Origin: Cyanidioschyzon merolae
Taxonomy: Eukaryota
Strand: one strand, 5' to 3'
NCBI GenBank assembly: GCA_000091205.1
Contig: AP006495.2
Length of the DNA: 64,000 bases
The notes beneath the pieces are model-generated. The model was not told the DNA's origin. It did no database searches and saw only the letters and a list, made by a program, of their open reading frames with translations. This document shows, piece by piece, positions 7,130 to 43,511 of the stretch (position 1 is the stretch's first letter; the number at the start of each line of letters is the position of its first letter). The position numbers and the translations under genes are program-made.

Positions 7130-7270
7130 GGTCGAGTCCTTGCTGTCGAAATTTGTTAGGTCACTGGTATCAAGAAGAGTCGCGACGCCCTCGAACACCT
7201 GGTTCGTAACGCGATCAGTATAGGTATTCAATTCTCACATATAGGCCTCGACTGTTCTTCTTTCCTTCTA
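7130..7270 (-). repeat. dispersed repeat family 1, partial inverted copy
   Basis: atcaagaagagtcgcgacgccctcgaacacctggttcgtaacgc...gtataggtattc is the reverse complement of the family-1 core gtgctcgagggcgtcgcgaaccatcgtcttgat. Related inverted fragments occur at about 1440..1560 and 47030..47110. Confidence 0.45.
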
Positions 7271-12890: not shown

Positions 12891-13008
12891 CGTCCAGTCC
12901 AGTGTTCTATTTTAATTTGACACGCATGCGGCCGTCCCAAGCGCAGCGTAACCACGTTGCTAGACCTCGGGCAGTATTTTTGCACATAGTCATAACAAGA
13001 GGAACACT

Positions 13009-14841: not shown

Positions 14842-14928
14842 AGATCAACTTTTGGAATGCAGGTCAGTGAAGTAATTACTCCCAAATAAGAATAAAAAGG
14901 GACAGGTGCCATCTCACGGGCGCATAAT

Positions 14929-15376: not shown

Positions 15377-15859
15377 AGTGCCGTACCGTGTGGTTACTGG
15401 CTCTCGCCCGGCAATCCCCTCGATCAGTATGCTATCCGCCTTACGCGAAAGCGCAAGCTGTTCGGTTCAAGAATTCACCAACTGCTTCTTTTCATGCCCT
15501 GGTGGCGTCCTTGATCGTGTTTAAACGCGAAGAATAAAATTAAAGTGTGCAAGTTAGCTCGTCCCCCGCCCTATGCTGTTTTCCGATCAGAACGCAAGAG
15601 GATTTATAAAATGCGACGTCATCCGTGATGTAACAAATGCCTTAGGGAAAATAGACATAGGAGAAAATCTCGAGAAATTTCGATCCGTAAATGATTCCTT
15701 CGTGGTAAGCGACATCGACTGTGAATCAAATCCGGATCTGAGGCCCTGTTCAATGTGAAACGATCAGACAAAAGCGAGTAGGGTGCATATCCGGGGAGAT
15801 ATCCTGTTGTTGTGGAATGTAGTTTCGGCGATGTTCACAAAGAGCAGCGGATTCGTCGT

Positions 15860-16300
15860 TCGGACGTATCTGACTATTTGGCGTGAGAATTTCGCTCATG
15901 TTTCAGCATGGTCTTGTGAGGAAGCCATCGTAAACCGACTTCGGATGCTTTTACTCGTCCGCGTGGTTGCGCGAGGCCCTACGTCCATAAGTTACCTTGA
16001 AACAGAAAAATCGAGAGCTTGAGGAATGCGTAATTTGAACATGCTACACGTCTGGAAAGGAGAAGACTGGAGGCTTGTTCGTTTGAATATGGATCATGAT
16101 ATCGGTTCTTTGCCGAATTTTGCTCGAGTGTGTCGCCAATCATTTTGATTACATTGATGGCAAGCATTCCAACTGCGCAGCATTGAAGAAGTCGATCCCA
16201 AAACGAGGCCCGAGAACCCCAATTTGCTAATGCATCAGGAATAACTTATCGCAGCAAATTGTATGCCACGTCTGTACATGTAAAAAAGTTTGAAAACGAG
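15860..16300 (+). repeat. dispersed repeat family 1, copy downstream of LysRS
   Basis: Contains gactatttggcgtg...ccttgaaacagaaaaatcgagagcttga...ggagaagactggaggcttgttcgtttgaatatggatcatgatatcggtt...gtctgtacatgtaaaaaag, which aligns with the copies at 12440, 29600 and 58270. Confidence 0.6.
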
Positions 16301-17459
16301 ATCGAAAGGTAGGAATAGATCGTGCAGCTCAAAGTCTTTCAATTCAGTTTTATTCAACATTCACTGCAGTGTGTGGCAGGGATTTGACGCCTGGAAGCAA
16401 GGTACCCTATAGACTGTTGACGAATTGCCTTTAGGATATACATTCTTTACTGAACAGTGAAAGGAGGACTGCATTCCCCCTTAAGGTCAGTCAAACCACA
16501 ATATTCAGATGGGTGAGGAATGCGGAATCAAAGGAATGAATGCTGTCCGCGCCAAAAACTGGTATTCTCGAAGACTGCTTGCAGTCAATAGTAGAAAACG
16601 ACACTTTGGACTCGCTACGGTAAGCAAAAGCGACGTTGGTAGCGGCAAATGGCTTTTCAGTTTCTCAACAACGCGTTCGTGTGGCCCTGAAAAAAACTGG
16701 ATACTGTCGCAAAAAGAAAGTCTTAGTTTATGCACGGCCATTTCCCACCGAGGTCGCAGCTAATTCAGCGTTCCAGGAACGTCGCTATCCGTATGAAGCA
16801 CAGGGACAAGGACGTCGGTTTGCTCTTTCAGTCGATGAGAATTGCTTCGGACGAAACGGTCAGAACGCATTCGGGTATTCGCGGAACGGGAGCCCGTTGT
16901 ACGAAAGACCGAACTGGAAGAGAACGACGACATACCACCTGGCCTAGCTGCAGGGGATGTATTTAACGGCCTCAGTTCGCTCGTAGGGAAGGTTCATACA
17001 ACAACACCGTATTTGCCAAATTATTGAAGTCTTTTCCTTGACGTCTGGTGACGTCCTTCTGTTCGACGACGTAGTGTTTCACCATTCCACTTGCAACTGA
17101 GCTTCTGCGGATTCTCTCTGGCCAGAACTGCTTTTCATTCCGCGGTGTACTTCGTGGTCGAACCCAGTCCAGCAAGTGTTTTCTGTTGTGAAACATAATG
17201 ATAGCTCCACTGGGCGAATGTTTTTGTTTGGAAAACCGTTTACATTGACGACGGATCCGAGGTTGCGGGACGAATACCGCCTTCCGGGAAAGCGTCCACC
17301 ATGCCGCACACTACCTCCAAGTGCCAATACCTGTACTCGGTTGTACCGGTCGTTTCGTAGGTACTAACGCTCGCCAACCCTGTCGTTATAATCAGCATCA
17401 AACGTCTATATCGCTTGTACAGATGCTGCACCGATACAGAAAGCCCTTGCCATATCTAT

Positions 17460-17758
17460 GAGCGCGTCGGCTCGAGACGTGGTTCACTCGACATGAGGTC
17501 GGGACTCTTCAACTTTCTGGGAGCCTGCAAACTGCGCAGACAGACCTACAACCTGCGGCAGCACGAAGCGATATCCTAGGAGCCCATCGCAACCAGAGCG
17601 ACGCCCGGATGCAACCTACACGCTCCATTTCGCATAATAAACTGTGTTGCGGACGAGTTGCTCAGACCTCGCTGTAGCACCCGGCACCGAAGAGACATAC
17701 GCTTCGCAAGCCCGGCAGACTCGTCCAGTTCGCCGGACCTCCCGCCTAGGAGGTAAAC
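17460..17758 (+). repeat. dispersed repeat family 2 / candidate structured ncRNA, copy B (about 300 nt)
   Basis: Homolog of 2319..2587. The terminal hairpin CCTCCcgcctaGGAGG corresponds to CCTTCcgcctaGAAGG in copy A, a double compensatory change in a 5-bp stem. Confidence 0.5.
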
Positions 17759-18066
17759 ATTCTAGAATACGACAGTGTTTTCCCGTCAACGCTGGCCGTA
17801 AAGAAAGAAAGATATTTTTCTATTTTGTTTGTTAAAGATTACTTGTGTTCCCTGATCAAGAAATTGCGATTGCGCGATACACATGAGTAGGACCGCACCT
17901 GCGACATGCGCTGGGTGCGTCGCATCGCTGGCAGTGCAAATTTGTCGCAAATAGTCCCCGAGATCGTTGCTCGTGTGTCGGCACCGCAGATGCATGGAGA
18001 AGCAATGGCGCTCCAGGCGCGCTTCGATGCTGGCGGCGGAATCCGAACGATCTGGACCATTCAATC

Positions 18067-21437: not shown

Positions 21438-24400
21438 CTTGCCAGGGAATAAAGTTCGGTGACAGGAGTACAGTATACAAATGTTTAACTTATATTCGTC
21501 CCCGCCCGCTGATCAACACCGGGACGGCGATGATGCTGCGGGTGGCGGCGCGTGTGGTGCGCGGGGCTGCATATGCGGCTGCTGTAAAAGCGCAAGCTTG
21601 ATGCTCCGGCACCGTGCTCCACGTGCTTCTGCAAACGTTTTCTTCTCATGTGTGCGTGTGAATCATTCAGCGAACGCGTGGATGCGTAGAAGCGTCTTGC
21701 TATCGGGGCGGTGTCTTCTGGCATACCTTTGCCAGCAGATACGCTTTTTTTGTTCTGCCTCGGAATCACGAGCCAAAGGAATAAATCTCGCAAATTGGGG
21801 ACAGACTATGAAGGAACTTGATGCTGTCCGTACTAGATTGCGAACATGTGGCTTTGCTCGTAGAAATCAGTTACCCTACAGTGATCAAGTGAATGAACTA
21901 CCTGTCTCGTTGTCTTAATGATGGACGTTGTGTACTTAAACCTGAACTTATCAAACTCTGTCTACACCAGTGCCTTCTCGTCAGCGCATTTCCCACTATA
22001 GGTTCTCTAAGAGTTACCACCAAAGAGGCCACAGGATGCGAAGATTCCCCATCTTTGACATGAGCGGTGAGAAAGAGACACGGATCGGCCAGGGGCAAAG
22101 CTTGCATCGATGGGAGACCGCTGCGCGTTGAGCGTTGCGCTACGGATTTCGTTGTAAAAAGCGTACGCTTTTCTTTAAAGGGAAGCACGTTCGTCTTACT
22201 TGATGGGAGGTCATGCGAGGGAAATCGTAGAAGCGCATACGGATACTCAAAGGGAAGTAAACGGGTATTGATAAAGAACAGATATGCGAGAATTACGAAG
22301 ACTGCAGCCGCAGCGCCGATGCTGTCGATTTGCCAACGAAAACATCGCCAGACGGACAGAGTCGTTCAAAAAAACAGCCGTCGAAAGAGCACTTTGTAGC
22401 TTCTAAATCCCATTTTTTGTCCTGCTGTCAGACGATATCGCTCTGATTATTCAAAAGCGGTCACGGAGTATGCGGCTGAGACAAGCTTTCAGCTGCACTT
22501 TGTGCCAGCGTACTACCCCTGGTTCAATCCATTCGAAGTCGTCTTCTCTGTTGTCACACGCAAATTTTGTTACACGCTTCCATGAAAGAGCCGTTGGCGT
22601 CTTGACGCTGTTCTTCGGTAATAAGTTGTTCAACGAGACTTTCTTTACCTAAACACGTTTTGAAATGCCCTAGTGCCTCCCTGTTTGTGCACGGGATGGA
22701 GCGGCAAATTGCATCTCGGTACAAGGGCGTGACCATAGCCGAATAAGTAACCAAGACGCTCTTATGGAATAGTCTATGTATGTACGGCTCGAGGATTTTC
22801 ATTCCCATTGTTCACCCATTATGTCCAGTTTCCGATGCAACAACGTGTGCATTATATAAAGAAAACATCCATGCGAATGTGCCTACTAAAAGAGAAACAG
22901 AAGATACCAAATGAAATAGGAGAGAAAGTCCCTTATGAAAAGAGGACGAACATGGAACGGAAGCGGAATCTCTAGGAGCGGAAGCATCAGTCTAAAATCA
23001 TTGTCAATGCCTCCTTACGAAAACACAGCGGTGAGAATATGCGGAAAGTATGTTGGAGAACCCCATTAAGGATCGCGTGGGTTTTTCAAAGAGAAATTCT
23101 CGCCCAGTTCTCATCTTCTTGGCGCATTTTATCAACTTGCTGTTTGCGAGAGTTCCGGATGCAGTGTTACCAGCCGTCCACATTTCTCTGGAAATTTCGA
23201 TCGTACCCTGGAGCGACAATACAGCTGATGCCTGGGACAAAGGGTTCAATACGGCCTGATCGCATGATAGGAGATTACACACAGGCTTCCCGAAATACCT
23301 CGACAAGACGGCGAGCCACGTTGGCGAGAGCGACATCTACAGCGCAATTTCAAAAGCATGCCAGACCAGTCTCAAAACCCATACGCGGATCTGCCTAGAG
23401 CGCTTCATGAGGCGCCCCTTTAGGCATTGTAACTGTTGCAACTTCACCTTACCTACCCAGAAAACTGGAGACTGATCGAAGAAGTTCTTCGGGTGTCGAT
23501 GGAGGCAAGCAATGAGGTGGAGATAACGGAAGAGATCGGAATGGCAGCAAGTCCGGAAGCAATGTTGAACCCAGAACGAGACGTGCTTCACTTCGTACCA
23601 GTCAATCTTGTTGCTCTAGGTCTCGAACAGACGTTCGTCATAACCAAAGAATGGTTGCAAAGTGATGTCTTCTTTTCCTCCATCTGGCGCGACAATCCTC
23701 AGCAGCGCCCTCGAGTGCAGAGCAGAATCCCTCCCAGAGTCCGAGCGCCATCGCTGTCTCAAGCCTCTATTGGATGTAGTGCCCGTAGACCAGATCAGGA
23801 CGGATTATATCGCCTTAGACACTATTGGATTGTATGGCCTCCTTAGTGTGCTACATATGGTCTCTGCGCGCACGTGCGAAGCATTCGGAAAACGCTGCAA
23901 TGGGCATTGACTTGTTCGATCAAGATATCTCGTTCACTGGGATGAAATGGAGTGAAGTTTATAGGTACGCTTGAGGCCCGCGGAATATCATTCTTCGTGC
24001 AGTTTGAGAAACTTATACCTTAACCGAGAAACGAGTATCGTTCCCAAACTTTTGAGGTCGATAGAGAGAAAAATCTCTTGATGAGTTTGGATCCCGGATT
24101 AACGAACAGTGTGGCTGTCGACGTACTTCTAAACCAAGAGGACGGAGCGAGAGTTTTGAACGATATGCAGATGAAGCTGGCCAAGTATTTTGAGGGCTCG
24201 CTATCACCGGAAGTCATGCATGGCAGGCACGAGGAGGCACACCAACGGACGGATTGAAGGCACCAGTACCAATCATGACGCTCCGAGTACCTTATTGAAC
24301 AGAACAAGATGATTTGCACGCTTCATCAAGAGCGTGCGTGTGCGTCCCAACGGTTGATGCGGACGACTCTGGAGGGCGCACGTGAGAGTGCGCTGGGGTC

Positions 24401-26218
24401 AGCAACACTTCGCGTTCAATGGAAGCAAGAAGCGTGCGTTCACCAACGTGTTCAATCGTTTGGAATTGTGGTTACCAGTCCGCTGTGTCGTGTAGTTGTA
24501 GAATGTGGCGCTGGAAGTGCTGTAACGTTCATATTCTGTACTCCTGCTCCTTTTGACGAGCGCGTAAAACAATTGCATCAATCGGTTCTGTACGATTCCT
24601 GTCGAAGCGTTCGGGGCGACATGTGCGCATCACGGGTTGGGATTCGGGTACAGAGTAAACGAGGTATAGAAGCAGGTGACGATCAGCAGTAAGACGCACG
24701 AGATGGTGCATGGTAAGAAGACCGAACGCCGGATGCCGAAGCAATCGACAATGAGAGGCTTCCTCCGACGTGACCGTACCATCAAGAATTCGTTCATGCA
24801 CTTTCTAAAATAGGACTTGAGCGCCTCAATCAATATACCGCAATGTCTCCTGCATCCGGAGCGTCCAGAGGCTTGCTGTTGAACGAGCTTTCGAGCGAGT
24901 TGCTTAGTACACAGCTTGGACATCAATCTGTAGTGATGAACAGCTCGCACCGGAAGAAATCAGCAGCAAGGAGAGAGGGTTGAACTTCCTCTGGAGCAGG
25001 GCTTTGGTATGTCGTGGTCAACAATCCGACAAGGCTGGAGCACAGCATCTATGCGCCCGGTATGATTTTCCCAGGAAACTGGTGAGCCATAAGGGCATCC
25101 AATGGGTCTATATTGCTCTATTTATCGCAGCATGAACGTAACCATTTCCGTGAATGCTTCCGCGCAGCACAAAGGCGGGCAGCGTCGCCGATGCTTCTCG
25201 CACTTCTGTGCGGACAGTGATCCCGATATCGCCGAATGCGCTGCTCGAAGCTTCCGGACTGGGACCAGTGCTTCCAGTTGCGAAAGCACGCTCATCTGTG
25301 CCTTCTGGGTCTACTCCGGGACCGTAGATTCCGGCGTTAAACTATTTGCCTCATAAATGCGTAGCATTTCGAGTGGCAATAAAATGACAAGCCAGTTGTA
25401 GCTTTTTCCACACTTTCAACGTCCTCCTCGCACGCGAGGACGGTTGCCTTCTGCTGCACCTCCTGCCAAGGTGCACGCTTGCGAGTGCGTCGCTTGTTTT
25501 AACGTCGTCGGAACAAAGTCGAGCAGGATTTTCATCAGACCAGCACCGAAAGAATACAGGGCTATTTAAGAACAATTCCGGGAACTGGTCTTTTGGCAAA
25601 CCGTGGTCGGAATGCCCGCCAGCTGCAAAAGTGTCCCGTGTTGAGGAAAGGATGGCACGCAGAATGCCACTTCGCCTTGACAGTGCGTTGTTTCGTTGTG
25701 CCAGGTGGATGCATTTTATTGGATACCACTGGATATACGACTGTTGTCGGAAGTTGGCCAAAATAATACCCCACTTCTTCTCCAAATATGATAACTTTCA
25801 GGCGCCGGAGACACATCTTCGTATTCCTTATACGGGTTTTACCCAACGACACAGGTTCTCTGGATGTCGAAGCTACACTGGATGCTGCTGGCGACGCCGG
25901 ACGCCCTGTCGCGTTCGTTGCACGTCGACATAATAGGCTACAATCATGTCTTAGGGATGCCCGAAAGACGTTCGCTCTTCGCGCCTCGCTGCGAAGGCCG
26001 TTTCAGCATCAGTGCGGATCGAGTCCGCATTGGTGAAAGGCACGAACAAGTATTGTCCAGTTTTGGCCCAAGCTTTCCCTGCGCTCGATTCCCCGTCGAG
26101 CGGTGGACAGCGAATGCGCGCATACTACGCTCTGAGTGGCCGCAATTTGGAAAACGTGTGTCGCTTCTGCATCGCTGAGTTTCCCTAGTTGCCTTCTTGA
26201 ACAGTTTGAAGTGAATCA

Positions 26219-27097
26219 ATGTGGCTCTACGCATGGTTTGAACGATTTTGGCTCCACTTTACGACGTCTTTCTCGCCGTTCACGCTTCACACTCTCTTTA
26301 CGTTCGCGATTCATGAGTTTGCGTACTGGGGCGTGTACCTGCCGTACGCGCTCATGGACAGAAGCAAGTTTTTCCGCCGCTGGAAGTTGCAGGAAAATAC
26401 TTACGGGTATTCTAGCTCAAGCAAACAGTCACAGAAGCTACCGAAAGAAGACGCGCAGAAGTTTTGGCGCTGTGTATTGTACGTAGCTGCGAACCACGTG
26501 TTCCTTGTGTTGCCGCTGATTCTGGTAACGCACCCATTGTTCGAGAAGCTCGGCACAACGCACGGTTTGCCGCTGCCGTCTCTAAGGGAGTTTATCGTGC
26601 AGATTCTCTTTTGCCTCTTTGTTGAGGATATGTGCTTCTACTGGGGTCATCGCGCGTTACATACTCCTTGGCTTTATCGATACATTCATGCTATTCATCA
26701 CCAGTACACAGCACCGTTCGGTGCGGTCGCGGAATTCGCCCATCCCATCGAAGTTATATTCCTCGGTATGTCCACTGTCGCCGGACCGCTCATTATAGGC
26801 CCGCACCTGCTCACGCTATGGGGCTATCTAATGGTGCGTTGCTGGCAGACGGTAGACTGCCACTCTGGGTACGATCTTCCATGGTCGCTGAATCGATGGT
26901 TTCCGCTGTACGGCGGTGCGCGTCAGCACGACCATCACCATAAGACTTATTCTGGCAATTATGCTTCAATGTTTATCCACATGGACTGGTTATTCGGAAC
27001 TGATAAGGCATGGAGGCTCTCGTTACAGAAGGCGAAAGCGAAACACGTTCGAGCTGTCGCTCAGGAGTTGGCTGTGAGTTTCAGTGCTGAGCGATAA
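26219..27097 (+). CDS. fatty acid hydroxylase superfamily enzyme, methylsterol monooxygenase (ERG25/SMO)-like sterol desaturase family
   Basis: 292-aa membrane protein with histidine boxes HRALH, HAIHHQY and HDHHH in the order and spacing typical of the ERG3/ERG25 family. Confidence 0.8.
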   Translation: MWLYAWFERFWLHFTTSFSPFTLHTLFTFAIHEFAYWGVYLPYALMDRSKFFRRWKLQENTYGYSSSSKQSQKLPKEDAQKFWRCVLYVAANHVFLVLPLILVTHPLFEKLGTTHGLPLPSLREFIVQILFCLFVEDMCFYWGHRALHTPWLYRYIHAIHHQYTAPFGAVAEFAHPIEVIFLGMSTVAGPLIIGPHLLTLWGYLMVRCWQTVDCHSGYDLPWSLNRWFPLYGGARQHDHHHKTYSGNYASMFIHMDWLFGTDKAWRLSLQKAKAKHVRAVAQELAVSFSAER

Positions 27098-28604
27098 CTA
27101 TAGGAGAGCAGACGAGTGATTGGTACGCAAGGCACTCGCATGAATGCGGTTGGAGGTTGGTCTTCTTGTACATTATATTGGAGCGAACAACTCTGCCGAG
27201 GTGACACCAAGCATCAAATATGAAAGTATCACCGATGAGCTTCCGGGCAGATACTGCTGAATCGGAAGATTGCATAAAGTAGGGACTCGTATCCAAGTGC
27301 ACCCAGACAGGTGATCAGCGTTACTGCCCAAGCGCCAACACGACCCAGCAACGAAAGCAGGAGCCCTCATTACGGGCCACTGGGGAAACGAATGTCAGCG
27401 AGGCACCGGTCCGCGCTTTCCAGACGCCTTGCGTGAACAATATCGACGGCATCCATCGCTTCGCGACGAGCGCCGACGTAGGCCCGGTGCGGTTAAGCAT
27501 GCAGCGCGGATACCCAGGGGCCAGCCCAGCACGCGTGATCAGTTCGTAAACTATATCTTTGCACCTGGAAATGTAACGTGCATTTGACCTGAAGTCGATT
27601 TATCGACAGTCTCTGCACCACGCGTCCAATGATCTTCGAATAGTATGCAAACGGAGCTTCTGAGATAGTTCTCCAACGCCAGAGCCTGGAGAGTGGTGCA
27701 TTGGCATTAGAAGCAGGATCGCATTTGCTTGGCTTCGAGAGAGAAGTAGCCGTTTAGCTTCGCTGTTGTGCACAGGTTTGTGTGGTTAAACCTTTCCACG
27801 TAAGAGCGTAGTGTCCAGCAATAAGGTTACGTTTCCTCGCGCAGTCCTAGTGCGGTGGAAGCTGGGGTATCTGCGTGTAAATTAGACACCGAGTTAAGGA
27901 CCCAACAGTCGTATGCGGAGCGCTAGCTTCACCATGCCTCCGCGAAGGCTTTCCGAACCTTTCTTGCACAAAGAATTGTAAGGTTCAGCGTGAACTGTCG
28001 TAAAATGCAGCGATTGGCAGGAAAGCGAAAGCGGTTCACGCTTTGATGTTGTCTGCTGCTCGTCGCCAGAGCAGAGAGCGCTATAATTTGCATTAGCGCG
28101 CACTGACAAACTCTGCTCGAAATATCAAACAAGTATGTGCTCCGGTTTAAGGTACAGCGCTCTGTTGCGAGACGCAAGACGCAAATTATAGGCTGCTTGT
28201 TGCAGCATGGTCACTGAATAGCGCGCTTTGGTGGTGGCCTCCCTCGTGAAAGCCGGCTCTGTTGTACAGGCGCGGCGTCAGTGCATTGGCGTTAGACAGC
28301 GCTCGGGGAGTGTCAGAGTGATATCGAGTGCTCGCCAACGGTTCTCCTCGGATGCATCAAGGTAACTGCATGAGCCAGGCGAAGCGACTTGCACTTCTCG
28401 CTACAGGCTCATACCTAGATCGACTTCTGGGACGCGATGTGGTAGGCGTACGCGACGTACCACAGGTTCGAGAAGGAATCCCGCCAAGCGAGGCACATAT
28501 AGCCACGTCTATCGTGCCGCTGTCGCACCTCAGCCCCATACTTGCAACACTTACAGGTAAGTAAAGATGCAGCCTCCTTCAGCATACCGCGGCGAATTCC
28601 ACCA

Positions 28605-30106
28605 ACGTGCGACAATAATGGAACTGTTTCCGCCAAGCTTGCTCGACATACAAAGTCAATGTTCGGGTCGTTTCCGACTATCATGACCACTAGTCCTCGC
28701 ATGATCTTGCAGCGACTGCTTGATTCTTTCTCTCTTCTTTACGCTCATAAGCACGTCCGTCCCTCAATGCCCTCATGTTTCGTTACCAGCAGCTGAGGAT
28801 GTTCGTCGCAGCTTGCAAGCCCCGATTCCGCTGCTCGCAGCGGTTGTCAACGTATTCCATGCACACGCTGAGGTTGCCATGGACGCTCCGCTTGCCCCAA
28901 GGATCGTCTTGGCCCTCGGCCTCGGCGCACCTCTCGCAGCGGCGACACGTTACTATGGGTAGGTGTTCCCCAGCGTCCGCGATACCTCCTCCAGCTCCGA
29001 ACGCCGCACATTTGCGTACGGAGACTCGCCTCGTCGCGCGGCACACAACCATGACATGTACAGAAGGCTCTTCTCGATGCTATGCGACGTTTTCGCACCC
29101 GGTGCCGTACTCCGTGATCAGGGACTTTGTCTGAACTTTCTCCTCGACATGTGCGTTGGCCGCTGCACGCGCAATCGCACGCTGCCTTGTTCGAGAACTC
29201 ACCAGGTGATACGCGTCACGGCCTTGGTGACGTTCCAAATCGGTTTGCCCCGAGGAGAAGACGTTCGAATGTATCACAAGACTCCTCCACCGTTCTCCGC
29301 TGCTTCCGGCAAAGAGGCGGTTTTGTGCAACCGATGGTGTCCATGGAAGAAAACCAGTGCGGGAAGGAAGGGCCAGGCTGGCGATCGCGTCGAGCGATAC
29401 CGACTCCGCTGCGCTGCGGTTGTTCAAAGCGCTGCCGGAGTCTCGGCTCTGACAGACCACTGCCACGACTCAGGTTCGAGTCCAAGACCGTTTTCCGTGC
29501 AAGCAGAAGAGATGGGAGCCTTGGCGGGCCCCCGCCCAGGGTGGCTGCACGCGGCTGCTATTGAATGCCGTTTCGTCGATGGCGCCAAAGCGAGGACGCT
29601 TTATCTGTTGGACGGGATCGACCTTGTAAGGTGACGAGTGCAGGGAGCTCTCGGCGCGAGCCCGTGGAGAGGCTGACAACAAGCGGCGTCGCATTTCTCC
29701 TTGTCAACCCAGCTGTGCAGAACGCTGCGCCCTCCAGTCGTCCCGAAACACAAAGATGAGATATGTGAAGCACGCGTGATTTGAGCTTTCCATACGTAAG
29801 GACGGAGAAGAGTGGAAGCTGGTTCGTATGAGCTGGCTCGTGATGTCGGTTCCTATACGATGCCGTGCTCGAGGGCGTCGCGAACCATCGTCTTGATTCT
29901 CGTGATGCAACGAGCACTAGCGACAAAAGGTTGGCGGAGCCGCTCCGAAGCGACAACCGAGCATCCAAAACCTGGTCATGAATCCATACGCGCCCATTGC
30001 TACATTTAGGATGTCGAGTCTGTACATGTAGAGAAAGTCCAGGGAGAATCGAAATGTAAACAGAGCAGGTAGGTCAGTGTTCTTTTTTGTTATGATACGG
30101 ATATTG
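28605..30106. repeat. segmental direct duplication, copy 1 (about 1.5 kb, >99% identical to 32412..33913)
   Basis: The ORF track lists identical ORFs at a constant offset of 3807 bp (e.g. 28963..29634 = 32770..33441). Both junctions can be read directly in the sequence, and only a few substitutions separate the copies. Confidence 0.9.
29600..30070 (+). repeat. dispersed repeat family 1 copy forming the 3' end of segmental-duplication copy 1 (an identical copy at 33407..33877 lies in copy 2)
   Basis: Contains gaaacacaaagatgag...ggagaagagtggaagctggttcgtatgag...cgtgctcgagggcgtcgcgaacc...cgctccgaagcgacaaccgagcatcc...gatgtcgagtctgtacatgtagagaaag. Confidence 0.6.
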
Positions 30107-30640
30107 GCGGCGTTTCCAGAAAGACTCAGAGACCAAACGTTCAGGCACGCTGGAAACCATCAGTACATGCATCTCATCCCAGAACTTGGCACCTAGGGTG
30201 TGCTGAGGCCCGCCTATTATCTTTCCTTGCAGGTCTGAACCCGCGATCGGCGAACTACTCGGTTTCGGAATGCAGGATACGATTATGCGTGGCGCCAGGT
30301 TGGCATTTTGTCCCGCTCGCGAAAGCACTGTATCCTCCTCGACGAGTTTCGAGCTAGTATCGCACAAATGCTGTCCAATTTCATCCCGAATCTTCATCAA
30401 AAGCGCCATGGTCCCTGGCGAGGCGTCGACCAGCGATTCCTTGGTTCGGTGCAGCGGGCATTGATGAGTGGCGAGCACGCGTGCCCTTCCCTCCCAACAG
30501 GCACGCGTGTAGTTTGCTCGTACGGCGGGTTCGCTGAACACCCAGCGGTACCTTCGAGCAGACTCGAGCTCTGTTTTAAGGACCACGAAGTCTCGGAAAT
30601 GCTTCAATGATACAAATGAAAAAGTTAAAACATTTCGCAA
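30074..30640 (-). CDS. hypothetical protein (188 aa), unknown function
   Basis: ORF lying between duplication copy 1 and the TerC gene. It is moderately protein-like with no recognised motif, and its 3' end overlaps the duplicated segment. Confidence 0.25.
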   Translation of the reverse strand: MRNVLTFSFVSLKHFRDFVVLKTELESARRYRWVFSEPAVRANYTRACWEGRARVLATHQCPLHRTKESLVDASPGTMALLMKIRDEIGQHLCDTSSKLVEEDTVLSRAGQNANLAPRIIVSCIPKPSSSPIAGSDLQGKIIGGPQHTLGAKFWDEMHVLMVSSVPERLVSESFWKRRQYPYHNKKEH

Positions 30641-31142
30641 CCATGATCAGTTACTTGCCCGAAGCGGCCTTGCTGGGAAAGGGAAAGCACGTCGATTTGG
30701 AAGCGGTTCCACTCGGTACGACATTCGCAGAAACCAGCGCTGTCTCGAAACGATGCCGCTGATGAACACTGCGTTCTATTGGCCGCATTCGTTCATGTCA
30801 TCGAGGCGCAGCTCTTCTTTTCCCAAGCAGATCGTAGGAACGCTATGAGTAGTCCAGTGCGTTACTCTCACGCTGGAATCCTCAGCAACCGTTGCTGCAT
30901 TCAAGTCACTGGTGTGCGCCGATCGTTAGTACTTCATCTATATGAAACCTAGCACACAAGCAAAATGCAGCACTACGAGGAACGAACATAACGCAAAACG
31001 CTCCACGAAATCCTTGGGTCGCGCAGCACCGACAAACGCTAGCTGCTCGCGCCCGACTCATGTCAGTAGCGCGACTCGCGTTCGCGTGCCCTGTTCTAAG
31101 CCATGCTCCTGAGACAGAACGACGTTGCTTCACCATGAGCCC

Positions 31143-32291
31143 TCATGATTTTTCATTTGTTCCTGAGAAAACAAAACCCGCAGAGTATCCGACTGCAAGG
31201 GTTCCCAGAATCACGGACAGCGAGATTGTCGTGCTAGCCTCGTACCCAAAGTATCCCAAGGCTAGTTTGGACCCAATGAAACCCAGTACCACAGCTAGGG
31301 TCTGTTCAATGTATCGGAAATTGCGGATGGCTTCCTGTATCACAAAGTACCAGCTTCTCAGGCCCACAATCGCCATCAAATTCGAAACATACACAACAAG
31401 CGGATCCCGTGAGATACCCAGGCACGCAGGTACCGAGTCCAGGGCGAATATGACATCCGTTAGCTCAACGCAGACCAGAACCAGCAAGAGCGGTGTCGCA
31501 GTGGTGGCACCATTCTTCAAACTAGTAAAAAATCGATCACCATCGTAGTCGTCTGAAACTGGAAGCAGTGCGGTCACTGCGCGGACGATGAAATTCTCGC
31601 GAATGCCCTCCTCGTTAGATTCATCGTCGGCCTCGGAGTCCTGGAAGCTGGACCAGAGCATACGTCCCGAAGAAATGAGCAAAATTGCAGCAAAAACGAG
31701 ACTGATTGTCCGAAAACGCTCCATCAGCGCAACACCTGTGAACACGAATATCGCTCGAAACACGGCCGCTCCGAGAATTCCATAGCTTAGAACTTTCTCC
31801 TGCAGGTTTTTCGGTACACGGAAGAAACGAAACAAGAGTAGAAATACGAACAGATTGTCGACTGATAGACTTTGTTCGACAACATATGCTGCCACGTATT
31901 CCATTCCTCGATCAGTGCCCTTCGTTCCGAAAAAAATGAGGCCAACAAGCAGACCTGCTGCCACAGAGATCGCGGTGCGCTGACGATCCCAGCTGGTCAC
32001 TTGGCGCTCTGAGGAACTGAGTTCATCTTTGAATTCTCCCCCTAGTGTCTTTTCATTCGGTGCTGTATGTTTGCTATTTTCACCGGAGCTAGATCGTCCA
32101 AGTGAGCCCCCGCGGTGCCTCTCCTTTTGCCTTACAAGCTGCAGCGCGGCGAGCCCCCTTCGTCGCATAGTTCCCGGTACACGCCCAGAGGTGCACAGCG
32201 TTCGCAAATTGCTTTTGTACGTCTGCGTCCATGTGAAGCATTTACAACCCACAGGCACGAAGCATTGACGTTCACCTGCTTGATAAGGCAT
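31143..32291 (-). CDS. terC: TerC-family integral membrane protein (plant/algal thylakoid TerC-like)
   Basis: 382-aa ORF. The core MEYVAAYVVEQSLSVDNLFVFLLLF and repeated LSVDN/ALDSVPA-type segments match the TerC family. Confidence 0.8.
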   Translation of the reverse strand: MPYQAGERQCFVPVGCKCFTWTQTYKSNLRTLCTSGRVPGTMRRRGLAALQLVRQKERHRGGSLGRSSSGENSKHTAPNEKTLGGEFKDELSSSERQVTSWDRQRTAISVAAGLLVGLIFFGTKGTDRGMEYVAAYVVEQSLSVDNLFVFLLLFRFFRVPKNLQEKVLSYGILGAAVFRAIFVFTGVALMERFRTISLVFAAILLISSGRMLWSSFQDSEADDESNEEGIRENFIVRAVTALLPVSDDYDGDRFFTSLKNGATTATPLLLVLVCVELTDVIFALDSVPACLGISRDPLVVYVSNLMAIVGLRSWYFVIQEAIRNFRYIEQTLAVVLGFIGSKLALGYFGYEASTTISLSVILGTLAVGYSAGFVFSGTNEKS

Positions 32292-32411
32292 TCACGAGTC
32301 CGCACCGTGGAGACCGTATTAAACGTGCATCTTACGACGCCCATCGTGAATGAGACGCACGCCCTGAATTTGAAATGGGATATTCTGGACATGGTATGTG
32401 TTGGATATCCC

Positions 32412-33913
32412 ATGTGCGACTATAATGGAACTGTTTCCGCCAAGCTTGCTCGACATACAAAGTCAATGTTCGGGTCGTTTCCGACTATCATGACCACTAG
32501 TCCTCGCATGATCTTGCAGCGACTGCTTGATTCTTTCTCTCTTCTTTACGCTCATAAGCACGTCCGTCCCTCAATGCCCTCATGTTTCGTTACCAGCAGC
32601 TGAGGATGTTCGTCGCAGCTTGCAAGCCCCGATTCCGCTGCTCGCAGCGGTTGTCAACGTATTCCATGCACACGCTGAGGTTGCCATGGACGCTCCGCTT
32701 GCCCCAAGGATCGTCTTGGCCCTCGGCCTCGGCGCACCTCTCGCAGCGGCGACACGTTACTATGGGTAGGTGTTCCCCAGCGTCCGCGATACCTCCTCCA
32801 GCTCCGAACGCCGCACATTTGCGTACGGAGACTCGCCTCGTCGCGCGGCACACAACCATGACATGTACAGAAGGCTCTTCTCGATGCTATGCGACGTTTT
32901 CGCACCCGGTGCCGTACTCCGTGATCAGGGACTTTGTCTGAACTTTCTCCTCGACATGTGCGTTGGCCGCTGCACGCGCAATCGCACGCTGCCTTGTTCG
33001 AGAACTCACCAGGTGATACGCGTCACGGCCTTGGTGACGTTCCAAATCGGTTTGCCCCGAGGAGAAGACGTTCGAATGTATCACAAGACTCCTCCACCGT
33101 TCTCCGCTGCTTCCGGCAAAGAGGCGGTTTTGTGCAACCGATGGTGTCCATGGAAGAAAACCAGTGCGGGAAGGAAGGGCCAGGCTGGCGATCGCGTCGA
33201 GCGATACCGACTCCGCTGCGCTGCGGTTGTTCAAAGCGCTGCCGGAGTCTCGGCTCTGACAGACCACTGCCACGACTCAGGTTCGAGTCCAAGACCGTTT
33301 TCCGTGCAAGCAGAAGAGATGGGAGCCTTGGCGGGCCCCCGCCCAGGGTGGCTGCACGCGGCTGCTATTGAATGCCGTTTCGTCGATGGCGCCAAAGCGA
33401 GGACGCTTTATCTGTTGGACGGGATCGACCTTGTAAGGTGACGAGTGCAGGGAGCTCTCGGCGCGAGCCCGTGGAGAGGCTGACAACAAGCGGCGTCGCA
33501 TTTCTCCTTGTCAACCCAGCTGTGCAGAACGCTGCGCCCTCCAGTCGTCCCGAAACACAAAGATGAGATATGTGAAGCACGCGTGATTTGAGCTTTCCAC
33601 ACGTAAGGACGGGGAAGAGCGGAGGCTGGTTCGTATGAGCTGGCTCGTGATGTCGGTTCCTATACGATGCCGTGCTCGAGGGCGTCGCGAACCATCGTCT
33701 TGATTCTCGTGATGCAACGAGCGCTAGCGACAAAAGGTTTGCGGAGCCGCTCCGAAGCGACAACCGAGCATCCAAAACCTGGTCATGAATCCATACGCGC
33801 CCATTGCTACATTTAGGATGTCGAGTCTGTACATGTAGAGAAAGTCCAGGGAGAATCGAAATGTAAACAGAGCAGGTAGGTCAGTGTTCTTTTTTGTTAT
33901 GATACGGATATTG
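32412..33913. repeat. segmental direct duplication, copy 2 (immediately upstream of the TerC start)
   Basis: Same sequence as 28605..30106 shifted by 3807 bp. It diverges after gatacggatattg at 33913. Confidence 0.9.
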
Positions 33914-33989
33914 ACACATAAAAACTTTCTACGACTATGGAGGGGAAATGAATGCACTTGTGCAGACGCCTCCAAACCTTTTTAAGTGG

Positions 33990-34270
33990 CCCCTGCCATC
34001 GGCTTCAGCCTCTCCCCGTCTACTTTGACCCTCAGGGCGCTGCCTCAAGAAATTCTCTTGTGTCAGATCCTAGGGTCTCATCTTTAGCACCACACATCTC
34101 CTGATATTGATAGCAGCGTCAAAGTCTAGGTTCACCAACTCCATACTTTTCTTGCCGCTGGTTCAGCGCACCAGTGCCAGGAGTTGTCGAGCGCGCGCCC
34201 TCTGTGCGAACACCCGTATACCATCCGACCGTTTCGTCCGGAAGAAGTCCCACCGTCTGAGAAAAGAAAC
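33990..34270 (+). repeat. dispersed repeat family 3, copy adjacent to the end of duplication copy 2
   Basis: ctgcctcaagaaattctcttgtgtcagatcctagggtctcatctttagcaccacacatctcctgatattgatagcagcgtcaaagtctaggttcaccaactccatacttttcttgccgctggtt aligns with 41100..41390. Confidence 0.5.
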
Positions 34271-34890
34271 CGGTGTTCCTGTGCCTCAGACTGATTGCGA
34301 GGTTCCAGGAACGTTGTCGTTGCGATAACGGTGGAAGATGGCCGTGTGTGGACTAGAACTCTTTTTTCGCGGCTGTATCCAGCTTTTTCAAGTTCAAACG
34401 AGTGAACTGGTGGGAAAAGAGACGCCCCTGGAGGCTGCTATCGCCGCTTTTGCTTCCCGTACGGTAATCAACGCGTCGTATCCTAAGATTTTCCTCAAGA
34501 AGTTTTTAAGAATATAGGTTTATGGCGCGGATTGCATGTTCTTGGTTTCTTTTGCGTTCCTCATCCATCAGAGTACTGTGGAATGACTGACCCGAAAAGG
34601 GGATGCAGCCCTCCTTGCACAGTTCAGTAAAGAATATATCCTACATTCAATTGGTCTACGATATATACAGTACATTCCATTCTGAAGTCCTTCTCCTAGT
34701 ATACACCGCTGCGGGATGGAACAGATGTGAGTTGGAAGAATACACCACAACGTTGGTGTAGTGCCCTTGGCGGCAGTGCGAACCCTCTGCGAATAACAAG
34801 GTGGCGTGGAAACGCGTCTGCCTGCGTTCAAAGATTCAAGTCTTTCTCAGGTGTTCTGGTTAGAGTCTGCAACTTGTTTCCAACACAGCT

Positions 34891-39636: not shown

Positions 39637-41099
39637 TAGCCTAATACTTTCATATGCATATAACGGCCTGAACTTGGTATGAAGACGTCACTTGGTAAGC
39701 AACGCCAGGAAGAGAGCACTTGAGACTTTCTTGGACCGCGGTTCAGCCTCAGCGGTCAATGACTGGGCAATTACTCGAACGGCATACATCGCCCAGCGTT
39801 CTGTGCTGCAAGAGCGGTTAGGCCGGGCCCATCGCCGGTTGTTTTACAGAGAGCATGCGAATTTTTCATTCACAAGGGTCTCTTCTGCTTCGGTTTCGTA
39901 AGTTATATACGAGCATTCTCTGCTTGAATTTTGGACGGGTTGTTCTCCGTAAAACGACTGCCTTCGCTGCTCTTCGACCCGATCACGAAAAAGCCATCCA
40001 GAGTGCGAAGCAATCAGCGTTTGCGTTTGCTTCCATCGTGGACCGCCCTTACAAAGCACTTCTACGTCGGAACTGCTCACCGTCTCGATTCCCATTGAGC
40101 AATCGCATCCTTGAAGCATACTTCGCAGCGCGTTAGCACCGACGTGTTCCAGACATCGCAAAGGAATGGGGGAGACATTTTTCCGCCGTGAAGCACCAGT
40201 CGCTTGCTTGTCGGAAGTTTTCCCCGATCATGCTGGGAATGTCGCCATGCTGATTTCCGTCTGGACGGCAACTCGCCACCGGCGAGTCCAAAATCCCGCG
40301 TTTCAGCCAACCTGAGCCTCATGCGCAAAGAGCTGGAGGCGAATTCCGGCTAAATGCAGATGCGCCTCTCGAATTGGCCCAAGGCAAGAGGAGCCCAAAC
40401 CGACTGGCGAGCGTATGTCAAGCCCTGTTCAGCGGGTATTCTCCGTCGATCCCATGGCTGCGCATGAGGCGGTGTCGCCACAGTCGCTCTGTAGCAGAGC
40501 AGCGTAAATCGAATCGTACTAGTGTAAACTAGCGACAGCGCTGAAAGCATGCCGCACAATTTTGGATCCTTTTCCATATACCAATGCGTATTCGTCGAAA
40601 TCGATTGAAACGCTATCGTCTAAATGCCCCGTTCGAGACCGGATACCGGGGCCAGCGGCTTTACGCAACAATCGCATGGAACTGAGCACACGAGAATTGA
40701 ATCGCCAGCCCCAGCATACAGTCTGAGGCCTCGAGCCTCCTACCAGACAGACTGTCATGTTCGAGAGCCTCTATAAGGGCGTGCCTGTCAGCCTAAGCGC
40801 TAGACGCCAGCGGACAACATCTCAATGCAGCATGCACGCCATTTCGCATCACATCTGTGCTGGATGCGATCGCTTCGAAGCGGCATCTATCCGTGCACCG
40901 TATTTTATACACAATCCGTGGCCTCCATTTCCAGATTCCGCTCCCAGATCATACTCTGTTCGCGTATGTGTTCAAGCATGCACACACACAAAACGCCGTT
41001 CTAAAGTTGAGCGTCGCCGGCAGTGCACAGTCGTGGCGGTGAACACGCCCTAGACATAGCGTCTTCAACTGACGTGCAGACGCCTCGCAGCCGTTCTGG

Positions 41100-41390
41100 A
41101 CCGGCCATCTAGTACTGCCTTCAACTTTCTCTCATATAATTCCACCTTGAGAGGCTGCCCCAGTAAATGCGCTCTTGTAAACTCTTAAGGTCTTCTTTCC
41201 ATCACCGCACATCTTCTTATATTGATAGCGGCATTAAAGTTCGGTTCACTAATCCCATCCGTTTCTTGCCGTCGGTAGTTGTACTCACCAGCGCAAGTAG
41301 TCCTCGAACTTTCGCTCTCCTTTCCATTTGCTCTTCTGTCAACGCTCCGTACTTTGCTATATCCTCAGGGCTCCGCTGGCACTTTTCCAT
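41100..41390 (+). repeat. dispersed repeat family 3, copy immediately 3' of the broken ORF pair at 41682..42988
   Basis: ctgccccagtaaatgcgctcttgtaaactcttaaggtcttctttccatcaccgcacatcttcttatattgatagcggcattaaagttcggttcactaatcccatccgtttcttgccgtcggtag aligns with 33990..34270. Confidence 0.5.
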
Positions 41391-41681
41391 CTCGACCCTC
41401 TGAGGTGTGCCCCCCAACTCGTAAGGCGTATAGGACGTTCAGATCCCATCTATCGGTATCGTAACAAAACGCTTTGCACACTCCTTGTACGTTCTTGTCG
41501 TTGGAGCTGGCTTAGTCCCTTTTTTGGTCATCCAGCGACCTGCTCCGTATGCTACTACGAGCCTCTGAATCTCGTCCTCTTTGAGTGCGCTCAACTAATT
41601 GAAAATTTTCGCAAACGCGCGCTTTTTCCCACTGTACAAGTTCATACGCAGACGTGCCCACTGGGGCTTTGTATATTCTTT

Positions 41682-42988
41682 CTACAGCGCCTCCCAATGA
41701 GCAACGCGAACTTTCATGAATTTCAGAAAAGCTTGAAAGTCCGTTCCTCGGCTCGTCACCTCGCTCAAAGCTTCCACGTGCTCTTTCACTCCTGCATTCC
41801 ATCTCTCAATTTTCTTCCTTGCATTCATGATTCCCGATTCTCGGTAGTATCTCGCTCTCGAGAACCTCAACAGACGCATGTCTTTCTGACGTAATTTGCC
41901 GTCAGTACCATCTTCAGCACGCTTCGGTACAGCGATGATTATGATATTCGTGATTCCGGGGTCAGCGCTAACGATAAAGTCGTTCTCATGCACTTTCTGC
42001 GTCATAGGAACCGCCTTCTTCTTATCTTCATGCTCCGCTGAAGGCAATTTCGAAGATGAAACAGGACGATCTGCCTCCAACCGACGAGAATGAACACACT
42101 TGGGTACCCCATCGGTTTCGAACATCCACGCAAATACCTTTTGCTTGCTCACTCTCAGACGTTTGAAATCGAAGATATTCTTCCAGTGCGTCTCCCGGTT
42201 TTAACCGGTGAACTCCTCCCTGCTGACATTGAACTCAGGACTGATCTCCTTAATGATGCCATGAAGGACTCTGGAGTCGATAGTCACAGATGTGACTCAA
42301 TGTTGTACATTGCAACCGCTTTGAAGCGCTTCCCCATTAGGGCGGCCTTCCGTCTCTCCCAGTCTTCATTTTTTTCCTCACTCAGCCTCATGTCTGCTTT
42401 GCATTCGAGCTCTCGATCCAGGAATACGAAATACTGCAGGAGAAGCCGATAGTATCTTTCCTTATCTTTTTTCAACTCTGATTTCTTTTCTGCAGGATTC
42501 GCCAGCCCCAAGACTGCACGATGCTCTTGTATAGCTGCGCGGATGACGGAATCCTCATTTGTGCTCCTGCGTGACGCCTTCTTGTCGAAGAATTCGATCT
42601 CACCTTCATACTGTCGATTGTTCGTAATGGCATTGATAATCGTCCATATCCCTTTGCGAGAGAAGCCCCGATAGAGTGCAAAGACAGAGCGTATTATGGA
42701 GCGTTCGAGTTTCACGATCACGTGGTTCTTCAAGTTCGTCAGGTACATCTTCGCCCCGTCCAAATTTATTCTGAGACTAGAAGCGGGTGTGCTGTGTCCG
42801 GGCATAGCCCTGGTCGGGTTGGAATCCCAGTATATGGCTTCACGTTGCCGCAGGCAGTGCGTCTGTATGCACAGCTGGAGGCTCCCAGGTTGATTATGCG
42901 CTACGGCCCCGTGTTGAATGAACCACGGCTCGAAAAGACGCCCCCACTGGTATGGCAAAGCTTCTCTGTCTCCGTCCTGCATCCGCAC
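41682..42988 (-). pseudogene. unknown Lys/Arg/Glu-rich ORF pair (234 aa + 156 aa) broken by stop/frameshift; possible decayed mobile-element gene
   Basis: Two adjacent minus-strand ORFs, 42284..42988 then 41682..42152, of similar basic composition. The second contains IVSADPGITNIIIIAV, which weakly resembles a TnpB/Fanzor RuvC-I (DPG) motif. A family-3 repeat lies just 3' of them, and non-protein-like overlapping ORFs occur on the other strand. Confidence 0.3.
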
Positions 42989-43511
42989 CGGCGGTTTAGG
43001 CTCTATTGCGCATGCTCACTCCGGGCTCGGCGCACGATAGAACATATGAAACGACCACTAGTCCCGAAAGAAAGTTTATGAAACGGAACTTGAAAGTAGG
43101 TGCATCGTGATGGACGCTTTTTCGTTTACCGTTACCCTTCCATCCCGAAATCCGGTATCGATGGTCCATGGAAACGTTTTCTCATCGGAAAAATCATCGG
43201 TGCCAAGTCCATTTGAAAAGTTTTGAATGGAGCCGCGGTTCCGCTGCATATCGAAGCGAAGGCCGCACGTGATCTGGAGGCGCTCATACTTTTCTCAACT
43301 TTTTCTTGTCGAGACAACGGACCAGAGAAGTGAAGGATCCACGTTTGTTCGTCCTTTGCTTCGCGGTCGTGGTTCTGAAAGGCACCTGTTGTTGCCTCGT
43401 TCCGAGTGCGCTGGGTAGGAGCCAAAGCTTGTGCACAGTTCGCTAGACTGAGGGAGCACGCTACTCGTTGTTCTCGGTTAAAAAGCGGATTGGATTCGGT
43501 TTCTAGGTGCA

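Follow-up and report, generated by a model that had tools for sequence, protein, structure and literature searches.

In the 64-kb stretch of the Cyanidioschyzon merolae 10D genome analysed here (hereafter the window; part of chromosome 13, 866,983 bp), the gene for a thylakoid TERC-type membrane protein, TerC, is bracketed by two near-identical 1.5 kb direct repeats, R1 lying 3′ of the gene and R2 upstream of it. The repeat unit, R, is one complete copy of a dispersed ~1.4 kb element; the family is named E here, and its members are dead DNA transposon relics. With moderate confidence, the data favour the reading that R1 and R2 are two separate old E insertions that have been homogenised by recurrent GC-biased gene conversion. 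The copies differ in their outermost nucleotides, their few internal differences are clustered, and their substitutions away from the family consensus are biased from AT to GC.

Extent and reality of the duplication

Self-comparison of the window at an offset of 3807 nt delimits a direct identity tract of 1500 nt, 28607-30106 against 32414-33913, across which (~28607-30106) 50-nt bins match at 50/50, while on both sides matching drops to ~10-15/50, the level expected by chance. BLAST of R1 against R2 gives 99.53% identity over 1500 nt, with seven substitutions and no insertions or deletions, and finds no third near-identical copy within the window. The initial annotation of this DNA had described a 1.5 kb direct duplication with a period of 3807 bp whose copies differ by a handful of substitutions; both points hold, with the starts given there (28605 and 32412) placed 2 nt too far out. 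The tract in R2 begins 122 nt upstream of the TerC ATG, and on the right the sequence identical between R1 and R2 extends 3 nt past the end of the element (end of the R1 tract at 30106). The features of the duplicated region are as follows.

31143-32291, minus strand: TerC gene, BAM81107, thylakoid TERC-type membrane protein (Pfam PF03741, E=2.7e-46; exact match to the 10D protein)
28600-30103, minus strand (the strand on which the ancestral gene reads): R1, member of the E family lying 3′ of TerC (offset comparison, family profile match at 28610-30105, terminus analysis)
28600-28606: R1's own diverged left terminus, CACCAAC
32408-33910, minus strand: R2, member of the E family lying 116-122 nt upstream of the TerC ATG (offset comparison, family profile, terminus analysis)
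32408-32413: R2's own left terminus, TCCCAT, preceded by TA at 32406-32407
28614, 29793, 29806, 29813, 29817, 29916 and 29933: substitutions between R1 and R2, in R1 coordinates
29793-29933 (R2 equivalents 33600-33740), strand not applicable: cluster of six of the seven differences

The initial annotation had named a collapsed or expanded assembly region as one possible explanation of the duplication. Near-identical repeats of 1.5 kb are a classic source of misassembly, and 100% identity of the copies within a contig is what graph collapse yields. The 10D reference, however, was finished from telomere to telomere by Sanger sequencing of a haploid clone (PMC1955436), and it separates the seven copy-specific differences. 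Five independent contigs from the Joint Genome Institute (JGI) metagenomes, from different samples (L001-L005), span the whole arrangement of flank, R1, TerC, R2 and flank with the period of 3807, and in all five the four junctions (flank/R1, R1/U, U/R2 and R2/flank, U lying between the two units) are identical in sequence to those of the reference. The TerC protein is recorded in 63 assembly blocks, and the shorter contigs end at the repeat edges, as expected of a true two-copy repeat. Because independent assemblies share the same four junctions, an assembly artefact is excluded for practical purposes, its probability being close to nil, and the proposal of a collapsed or expanded region falls. 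The duplication is real and present in wild strains.

The unit as a member of a dispersed family

With R as the query, nhmmer detects six more copies in the window, all of full length (E=1e-22 to 1e-77), and a family profile returns exactly eight E copies, which together make up ~18% of the window. As homology among the copies starts and stops at the boundaries of R, R is the whole unit. The earlier description of a segment that ends with a family-1 dispersed repeat was correct in placing a repeat there and understated its extent, since the entire 1.5 kb is one member of the dispersed family. The six other copies in the window are listed below.

1278-3280, plus strand: old E copy (profile nhmmer), split by a nested TE-N2_CMe / CMe-1A-5′ insertion at 2082-2685
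6960-8312, plus strand: old E copy (profile nhmmer), with TA on both sides
11616-12929, minus strand: old E copy, 80 nt upstream of the lysyl-tRNA synthetase (LysRS) gene
14888-16356, minus strand: old E copy, 47 nt downstream of the LysRS gene
46822-48165, plus strand: old E copy (R-query and profile nhmmer)
57395-58773, minus strand: old E copy (R-query and profile nhmmer)

The nested insertion in the first of these matches the published CMe-1A consensus at 80% over 639 nt (BLAST), and its position indicates that the module was inserted after the E copy. Like TerC, the LysRS gene and a HECT ubiquitin-ligase gene each lie between a pair of old E copies that share one orientation.

When JGI metagenome contigs were scanned with the protein of the consensus, 52 loci (659 kb) came up and the number of distinct E elements rose to at least 31, of which 24 full-length copies, R and 23 others, were used for the consensus and for the tests of GC content and substitution. 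The other copies share 52-59% pairwise identity in a star-like pattern. R is 68-71% identical to the 24-copy consensus, as the other copies are, with its differences spread evenly across codon positions, and its single-frame translation is interrupted by four to five stops and several frameshifts, so that both R copies are dead. All E copies carry stops and frameshifts, there is no period-3 conservation across them, and no intact or full-length autonomous copy was found among the 31 elements or in protein searches. R is thus as old and as dead as its relatives. R1 and R2 are nevertheless the only near-identical pair on one contig among the 31 elements. It had been suggested that many genomic copies would make the unit simply another dispersed repeat; many copies do exist, but the others are only 52-59% identical, and the near-identity of R1 and R2 therefore still needs an explanation of its own.

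Separate termini and the origin of the two copies

Identity between R1 and R2 begins 7 nt inside the left inverted repeat of the element. The outer 7 nt read CACCAAC in R1 and ATCCCAT in R2, and each matches the family consensus, CACCCAT, at five of seven positions, whereas the two match one another at only three; R2 also retains the TA. The terminal junctions of R1 and R2 are alike in all strains. Since a newly transposed copy would bring identical termini with it, the difference implies that each site had its own old insertion.

Recent transposition, in which an old copy was mobilised in trans by an active transposase and hopped 2.3 kb while the donor site was restored by repair, would account for a duplicated unit that coincides with one family element to within 7 nt, and the family has the inverted repeats and TA flanks usual for Tc1/mariner/IS630 elements, whose cut-and-paste movement often ends close by. 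It is nonetheless quite unlikely. Transposed copies carry their termini, and here four of the seven outermost positions of the left inverted repeat differ between R1 and R2 although the interior is 99.5% identical, while on the right the identity takes in the flanking TT and one more base. The inverted repeats of R are themselves decayed, the core GTTCCATTTT reading GTTCTTTTTT; none of the 31 elements and no protein search supplied an intact or full-length autonomous copy as a source of transposase; and an exact look-up of the open reading frames (ORFs) of R in public assemblies gave no other young R copy.

The tract starts 7 nt inside the element on the left and finishes 3 nt outside it on the right, an offset that might be seen if some process unrelated to the element had copied 1.5 kb of DNA that coincided with one element by accident. 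It is very improbable, however, that both boundaries would by accident lie so close (within 7 nt) to the ends of the element, and an accidental resemblance to the family terminus, at 5/7 positions or at ~7/9 with the TA (~1% or less), would be required of the flank of the supposed new copy as well. A segmental duplication of this kind leaves the GC bias described below unexplained as well, and must be considered highly improbable.

GC-biased substitution and clustered differences

The GC content of R is 56.2%, the highest of the 24 copies, against a mean of 49.9% and a range of 45.5-54.6% in the 23 others (z=3.0). Because the unique flanks of R have 49-54% GC, the increase is not a regional effect. 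Relative to the consensus, R carries 177 AT-to-GC and 118 GC-to-AT changes, compared with 2642 and 3145 in the pooled 23 others (Fisher p=1.5e-6), and it has the highest per-site AT-to-GC bias ratio of the 24 copies, 1.59 where the mean is 0.90 (z=3.7). The differences between R1 and R2 are also unevenly distributed, six of seven falling within 141 nt (P=2.2e-4 by simulation with seven random sites), and at 29806/13/17 the haplotypes ATA and GCG are both present among the metagenome contigs.

The same observations bear on a one-off event, in which a break in one old, diverged E copy would have been repaired from its neighbour shortly before the strains split, by ectopic conversion or microhomology-primed synthesis, with the interior replaced once and no long-term exchange. 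Such an overwrite would leave each site its own terminus and identical junctions in all strains, as is observed and as a single event predicts; the 0.47% divergence of R1 and R2 is of the same order as that between strains, and other neighbouring E pairs have not been homogenised. Homologous repair between copies that are ~55% identical is, however, not expected to work, a second event would have to be invoked for the 141-nt cluster, and the AT-to-GC bias spread over the ~30% divergence of R from the consensus, which is absent from 22 of the 23 other copies, would go unexplained. A single recent overwrite is accordingly judged unlikely, while deserving more weight than either transposition or segmental duplication.

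Recurrent GC-biased conversion between two old insertions, in comparison, accounts alike for the age of R, the separate termini, the cluster of differences and the GC bias. R1 and R2 display several hallmarks of concerted evolution, namely 99.5% identity against the 52-59% of other pairs, a tract bound to the element, clustered differences and an AT-to-GC bias. The initial annotation had offered ongoing gene conversion between promoter-like segments as one possibility; the conversion is favoured by the termini, the cluster and the GC bias, with transposon relics rather than promoter-like segments as the partners.

A proposed course of events would start from an ancestral E of ~1.37 kb with 25-bp inverted repeats (CACCCATGTCAGAATAAAATGGAAC), probably TA target duplications, and a chimeric gene that was probably already defective. 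Two such elements would have inserted in the same orientation, one in each intergenic spacer beside TerC. All E copies would then have died and drifted to ~55% pairwise identity, R1 and R2 moving equally far from the consensus but not from each other, as repeated non-reciprocal recombination between them, 3.8 kb apart on one chromosome, would have acted from soon after insertion and presumably over a long time. Conversion needs homology, so that identity would end near the element ends; it is patchy, so that the 141-nt cluster could be a patch missed by the latest homogenisation; and it is GC-biased, which would raise the GC content of both copies. A crossover between R1 and R2 would excise TerC on a 3807-bp circle, and if TerC is essential selection would purge such deletions, leaving only non-crossover outcomes. 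Loss of TerC in Arabidopsis is seedling-lethal, and an essential TerC may in this way have protected the R1/R2 pair.

Several observations weigh against recurrent conversion. The co-oriented E pairs around the LysRS gene (11616-12929 and 14888-16356) and the HECT gene (1278-3280 and 6960-8312) are 54-55% identical and not GC-enriched, which means that proximity alone is no guarantee of homogenisation; they could stem from insertions of different age, or have slipped out of homogenisation at an early stage. At the right boundary the tract continues for 3 nt outside the element, and its final 173 nt are free of differences, a pattern not expected if edges were simply the first to diverge. An E copy on another JGI contig (Ga0078972_1002423; L057, 17429-18816) has a GC content of 54.6% and 162 AT-to-GC against 117 GC-to-AT changes, second only to R, and no near-identical partner is visible in that locus, which ends 0.9 kb beyond the copy. 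The exact-ORF look-up in public assemblies returned only the contexts of R1 and R2. Inside each metagenome contig R1 and R2 are 100% identical, while the contigs differ from one another at 28 sites; short-read graphs collapse such repeats, which may be the sole cause of this identity, and it is therefore counted neither for nor against homogenisation. Divergence between strains in the unique flanks is 0.0-0.6%, so low that the population data neither prove nor exclude concerted evolution.

The ancestral E element

The long ORFs of the E consensus lie on the strand opposite to the plus orientation of R, which is the strand of TerC. The 24-copy consensus encodes two parts, an N-terminal transposase part of ~260 residues and a C-terminal TnpB-like part of ~130-165 residues. 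The former matches Pfam DDE_3 at 40.5 bits (cut-off 28.6; E=3.1e-10) and the NCBIfam IS630 transposase model at 66 bits (E=3.5e-18; model positions 20-260 of 299), a score below the strict equivalog cut-off of 100, and there are weak Tc3/HTH matches N-terminally. The latter matches Pfam PF07282, Cas12f1-like_TNB (formerly OrfB_Zn_ribbon), at 32.4 bits (cut-off 26.3; E=1.1e-7) and the last 60 positions of NCBIfam guided_TnpB, for RNA-guided TnpB (E=1.1e-3). Its motif, EHLTTVKCHRCE...FRLCMKC...RNRDFNAAINI, contains the classes TTxxC, CxxC...CxxC and RDFNAAINI, and the C-terminal signature of TnpB and Fanzor proteins is [TS][TS]xxC followed by a C4 zinc ribbon and RD (Bao & Jurka 2013, PMC3627910).

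Both parts are incomplete. The transposase match runs out near model position 260 of 299, where a degenerate YSPxxxP is all that is left, and a complete catalytic triad is lacking. A complete RuvC domain of TnpB/Fanzor (the RuvC-I aspartate together with the WED/REC N-terminal half) is likewise absent, the N-terminal two-thirds of the consensus being transposase-like, and no Rfam match in the window points to an associated guide RNA. The junction between transposase and nuclease falls in the variable central region of the family (R coordinates ~29207-29350). The element ends in 25-bp terminal inverted repeats, CACCCATGTCAGAATAAAATGGAAC on the left and, as reverse complement of the right end, CACCCGTGTCAGATNAAAATGGAAC, which match at 23 of 25 positions and are recognisable in most of the 24 copies. 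Of the left ends that can be read, ~7 of 12 have TA directly at the terminus, as have ~6 of 20 right ends, and two copies have it on both sides; the ends are decayed, and TA is a probable target duplication.

Detection of these similarities depended on the number of copies aligned. Single decayed E copies gave no Pfam match in three-frame translations, and a first 7-copy consensus gave only sub-threshold Pfam matches, although the NCBIfam IS630 match was already at E=1.7e-11; the curated Pfam cut-offs were passed once the metagenome scan had raised the alignment to 24 copies. The 7-copy consensus had no match at E<=1e-3 among 5.8 billion proteins, the E sequence and profile had none in the PDB, viral contigs held no E relatives, and comparison of the E profile with published Fanzor1 sequences was not significant (<=5 bits). 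The initial annotation had found no convincing coding potential in the segment, which is true of the present-day sequence; the family consensus reveals a decayed transposase/Fanzor-like gene on the minus strand.

Judged by these profile matches and ends, E is best described as a non-autonomous, dead relic of a DNA transposon of the Tc1/mariner-IS630 superfamily, and as a relic with a Fanzor fragment rather than a Fanzor gene. It appears to be an internal-deletion derivative of a two-gene mariner-type Fanzor1 transposon, and no full-length parent was found in protein searches, among the 31 elements or in viral contigs. Eight transposase-related elements were detected in C. merolae by Nozaki et al. 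(PMC1955436), who termed them class II elements related to bacterial transposases; at a guess, these may be the best-preserved E copies. No Tc1/mariner-Fanzor family is described for C. merolae in the repeat accounts consulted, which comprise these eight elements and the automatic classes Mutator, Helitron, CACTA and unknown.

Comparison with known systems

Mariner-type Fanzor1 transposons, found in oomycetes and algal viruses, consist of an inverted repeat, a Tc1/mariner-IS630-like transposase, a Fanzor1 gene in the same orientation and a second inverted repeat (PMC3627910); examples are PUl-1 of Pythium ultimum and PGv-1 of Phaeocystis globosa virus (Bao & Jurka 2013, PMC3627910). E has the same order of parts, and these elements have inverted repeats of ~24-33 bp and a TA target duplication. 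The PUl-1 transposase shares collinear motifs with the E consensus, AxDExAF ... GSVDxxxF ... DNxAxH, and towards the C-terminus of the PUl-1 Fanzor protein the consensus likewise has YG ... GHxxxP ... VKG ... DExxT[ST]xxCxxC ... NRDxNAAxN. Pairwise scores between the PUl-1 proteins and E are weak (9-12 bits), and the significant evidence is that of the Pfam and NCBIfam profiles. Unlike the complete transposons, E measures only ~1.4 kb, joins a truncated transposase to the last ~130-165 residues of the nuclease, and is dead in all copies.

The CMe-1A or 'WSV486-like' repeat (Nozaki 2007, PMC1955436; Bao & Jurka 2013) resembles E in being a dispersed, intergenic repeat of C. merolae with a TnpB/Fanzor C-terminus, and the motif NRDFNAAINI of CMe-1 is the same as in the E consensus. 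In contrast to E, CMe-1A is 3.2 kb long and codes for a Fanzor1 of 734 aa and no transposase, and inverted repeats are reportedly absent from it. An identification of E as CMe-1A was rejected, as tblastn with CMe-1 and blastn with the 5′ 905 nt of CMe-1A match loci of the window other than the E copies; CMe-1 scores 2.7 bits in an hmmsearch with the E profile.

E also resembles the deletion derivatives of IS630/Tc1-mariner elements (Ds-like, or resembling MITEs, the miniature transposable elements with inverted repeats) in its inverted repeats, TA flanks, internal coding deletion, and amplification followed by neutral decay. Typical MITEs are shorter than the ~1.4 kb of E, whose deletion seems to have joined two genes into a transposase-nuclease chimera.

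GC-biased conversion drives concerted evolution of nearby duplicates, as in palindrome arms and in tandem paralogues of yeast, mammals and plants. R1 and R2 resemble these cases in near-identity confined to the homologous block, patchy differences, raised GC and AT-to-GC bias. They differ in being dead relics in direct orientation around a single-copy gene of a very compact genome.

Rejected identities of the unit

A length of 1.5 kb, the lack of an ORF and a GC content of 56-58% suggested a structured RNA or a 16S-sized rRNA, and this was rejected as no Rfam match at gathering thresholds and no tRNA was found in the whole window. Present-day coding was rejected on the absence of a period-3 signal and of a Pfam match for any ORF, the plus-strand ORF of R (223 aa) being antisense noise. 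An LTR retrotransposon is incompatible with ends of GTGCG...ATTG, the lack of a target duplication and an 'internal region' that is the host gene TerC, syntenic in relatives that lack the repeats; no LTR elements have been reported in the C. merolae genome (PMC1955436). Campbell-type integration of a circle carrying TerC was dismissed on the same synteny and on the inverted repeats of the family. A putative target duplication of 12-13 nt around R1 (GCGGCGAATTCCA at 28589-28601 and GCGGCGTTTCCA at 30107-30118) is imperfect, runs contrary to the TA pattern of the family, and overlaps the R1 terminus at 28600-28606 instead of abutting it.

The TerC locus and its relatives

The neighbourhood of TerC and the lengths of its spacers in C. 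merolae and relatives are as follows.

26219-27097, plus strand: fatty-acid hydroxylase gene, BAM81106
30074-30640, minus strand: 'small ORF' of 188 aa (170 aa from the ATG at 30586), its last 33 nt inside R1
Spacer upstream of TerC: 2.6 kb in C. merolae, 297 bp in L021, 158 bp in L023
Spacer downstream of TerC: 4.0 kb in C. merolae, 2.0-2.2 kb in L021 and L022, 0.12 kb in L023

TerC orthologues in conserved synteny occur in Cyanidiococcus yangmingshanensis (L021) and on two metagenome contigs (L022 and L023), in all of which the gene order NYN gene, 325-aa gene, TerC and fatty-acid hydroxylase is kept. Nucleotide, translated and profile searches revealed no R homology in these relatives, the spacers flanking TerC included. 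As the relatives' spacers lack E, the two TerC spacers must have expanded separately in the C. merolae lineage, by two separate insertions. The intergenic DNA of C. merolae has been enlarged by the expansion of repeats, which amount to 2.09 Mb or 12.7% of its genome and to 0.59% in the sister genus (PMC9812998), and the expansion of the TerC spacers agrees with this published repeat-driven growth.

The partial tandem duplication proposed in the initial annotation does not survive these comparisons, a 1500-nt repeat with a period of 3807 lying in two separately expanded spacers; a simple head-to-tail tandem duplication was rejected on the same mismatch of length and period and on the unrelated sequences that follow R1 and R2. 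Nor is there support for two genes sharing an identical 5′ flank, as had been suggested, the unit forming the 5′ flank of TerC alone. R1 lies in the convergent 3′-3′ spacer between the hydroxylase gene and TerC with no minus-strand gene downstream of it, so that a shared promoter is unsupported. Of the TerC gene and the small ORF said to be bracketed by the repeats, TerC is indeed so placed, and the ORF at 30074-30640 is probably spurious, with no Pfam match, no entry in the reference protein set and no tblastx conservation in relatives; that protein set holds no annotated protein between BAM81107 and BAM81106.

On one metagenome contig (L006), positions 1-1781 are unrelated AT-rich DNA encoding the C-terminal part of Hsp90, joined at window position 32298, 7 nt upstream of the TerC ATG. 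Contigs from different samples begin at almost the same point (L007 and L010 at 32298, L009 at 32296). An assembly chimera formed at a shared k-mer, for instance with DNA of co-occurring Galdieria, might explain the join, as might a true structural variant upstream of TerC.

Significance for C. merolae

The commonest repeat of the window is now identified as what its consensus indicates to be a dead mariner/IS630-Fanzor chimera with defined inverted repeats. The feature around TerC is largely explained and is a new example of known processes, transposon decay and concerted evolution. Taken as a whole, a wider picture can be drawn only tentatively, in which E would be an unclassified, decayed deletion derivative of a Tc1/mariner(IS630)-Fanzor1 element, would make up a major part of the intergenic expansion of C. 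merolae (16.5 Mb) relative to its 12 Mb sister, and would hold in R1 and R2 a natural reporter of long-acting GC-biased conversion. If this is true, the pair records GC-biased conversion in an alga whose sexual cycle has only recently been described.

C. merolae is a model alga with a very simple finished genome and efficient homologous recombination. A natural 1.5 kb direct repeat around a single-copy thylakoid-type gene is a potential assay for intrachromosomal conversion, pop-out deletion and GC-biased repair. For engineering of TerC and for read mapping, the entire upstream region beyond -122 is duplicated 3.8 kb away.

Other repeats in the window

Repeats of the CMe-1 type are found at several further sites. 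A fairly well preserved copy of the CMe-1A ('WSV486-like') Fanzor1 element lies on the minus strand at 41053-43187, with 77-80% protein identity to CMe-1 residues 166-734 and a 5′ TE-N2-like part at 42765-43187. A diverged Fanzor1-like relic on the plus strand at 23275-24867 (26% identity to CMe-1 residues 142-689, E=1.7e-15) sits in the gene-free gap at 21.4-26.2 kb. Copies or fragments of the 635-bp TE-N2_CMe / CMe-1A 5′ module, 77-80% identical to the published consensus, occur at 2082-2685, 9520-9690 and 17233-17771.

Directly beside R2, at 33989-34201, is a fragment of the CMe-1 Fanzor C-terminus (57% identity, E=2e-14), and the DNA at ~33960-34202 is similar to that at 41074-41319 and 11285-11490. 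An unclassified repeat at 34192-34739 is common to 16335-16896, which adjoins the old E copy at 14888-16356. E copies and CMe-1 or unclassified modules seem to adjoin one another more often than expected by chance.

A tandem array of ~11 units of 80 bp with 96-99% identity occupies 53718-54610, between an ORF of 574 aa (51511-53235, minus strand) and one of 434 aa (55896-57200, plus strand). A 219-nt stretch is repeated inside these two long ORFs, at 51793-52011 in the former and 56763-56981 in the latter, and may represent a shared protein domain or a short paralogous segment.

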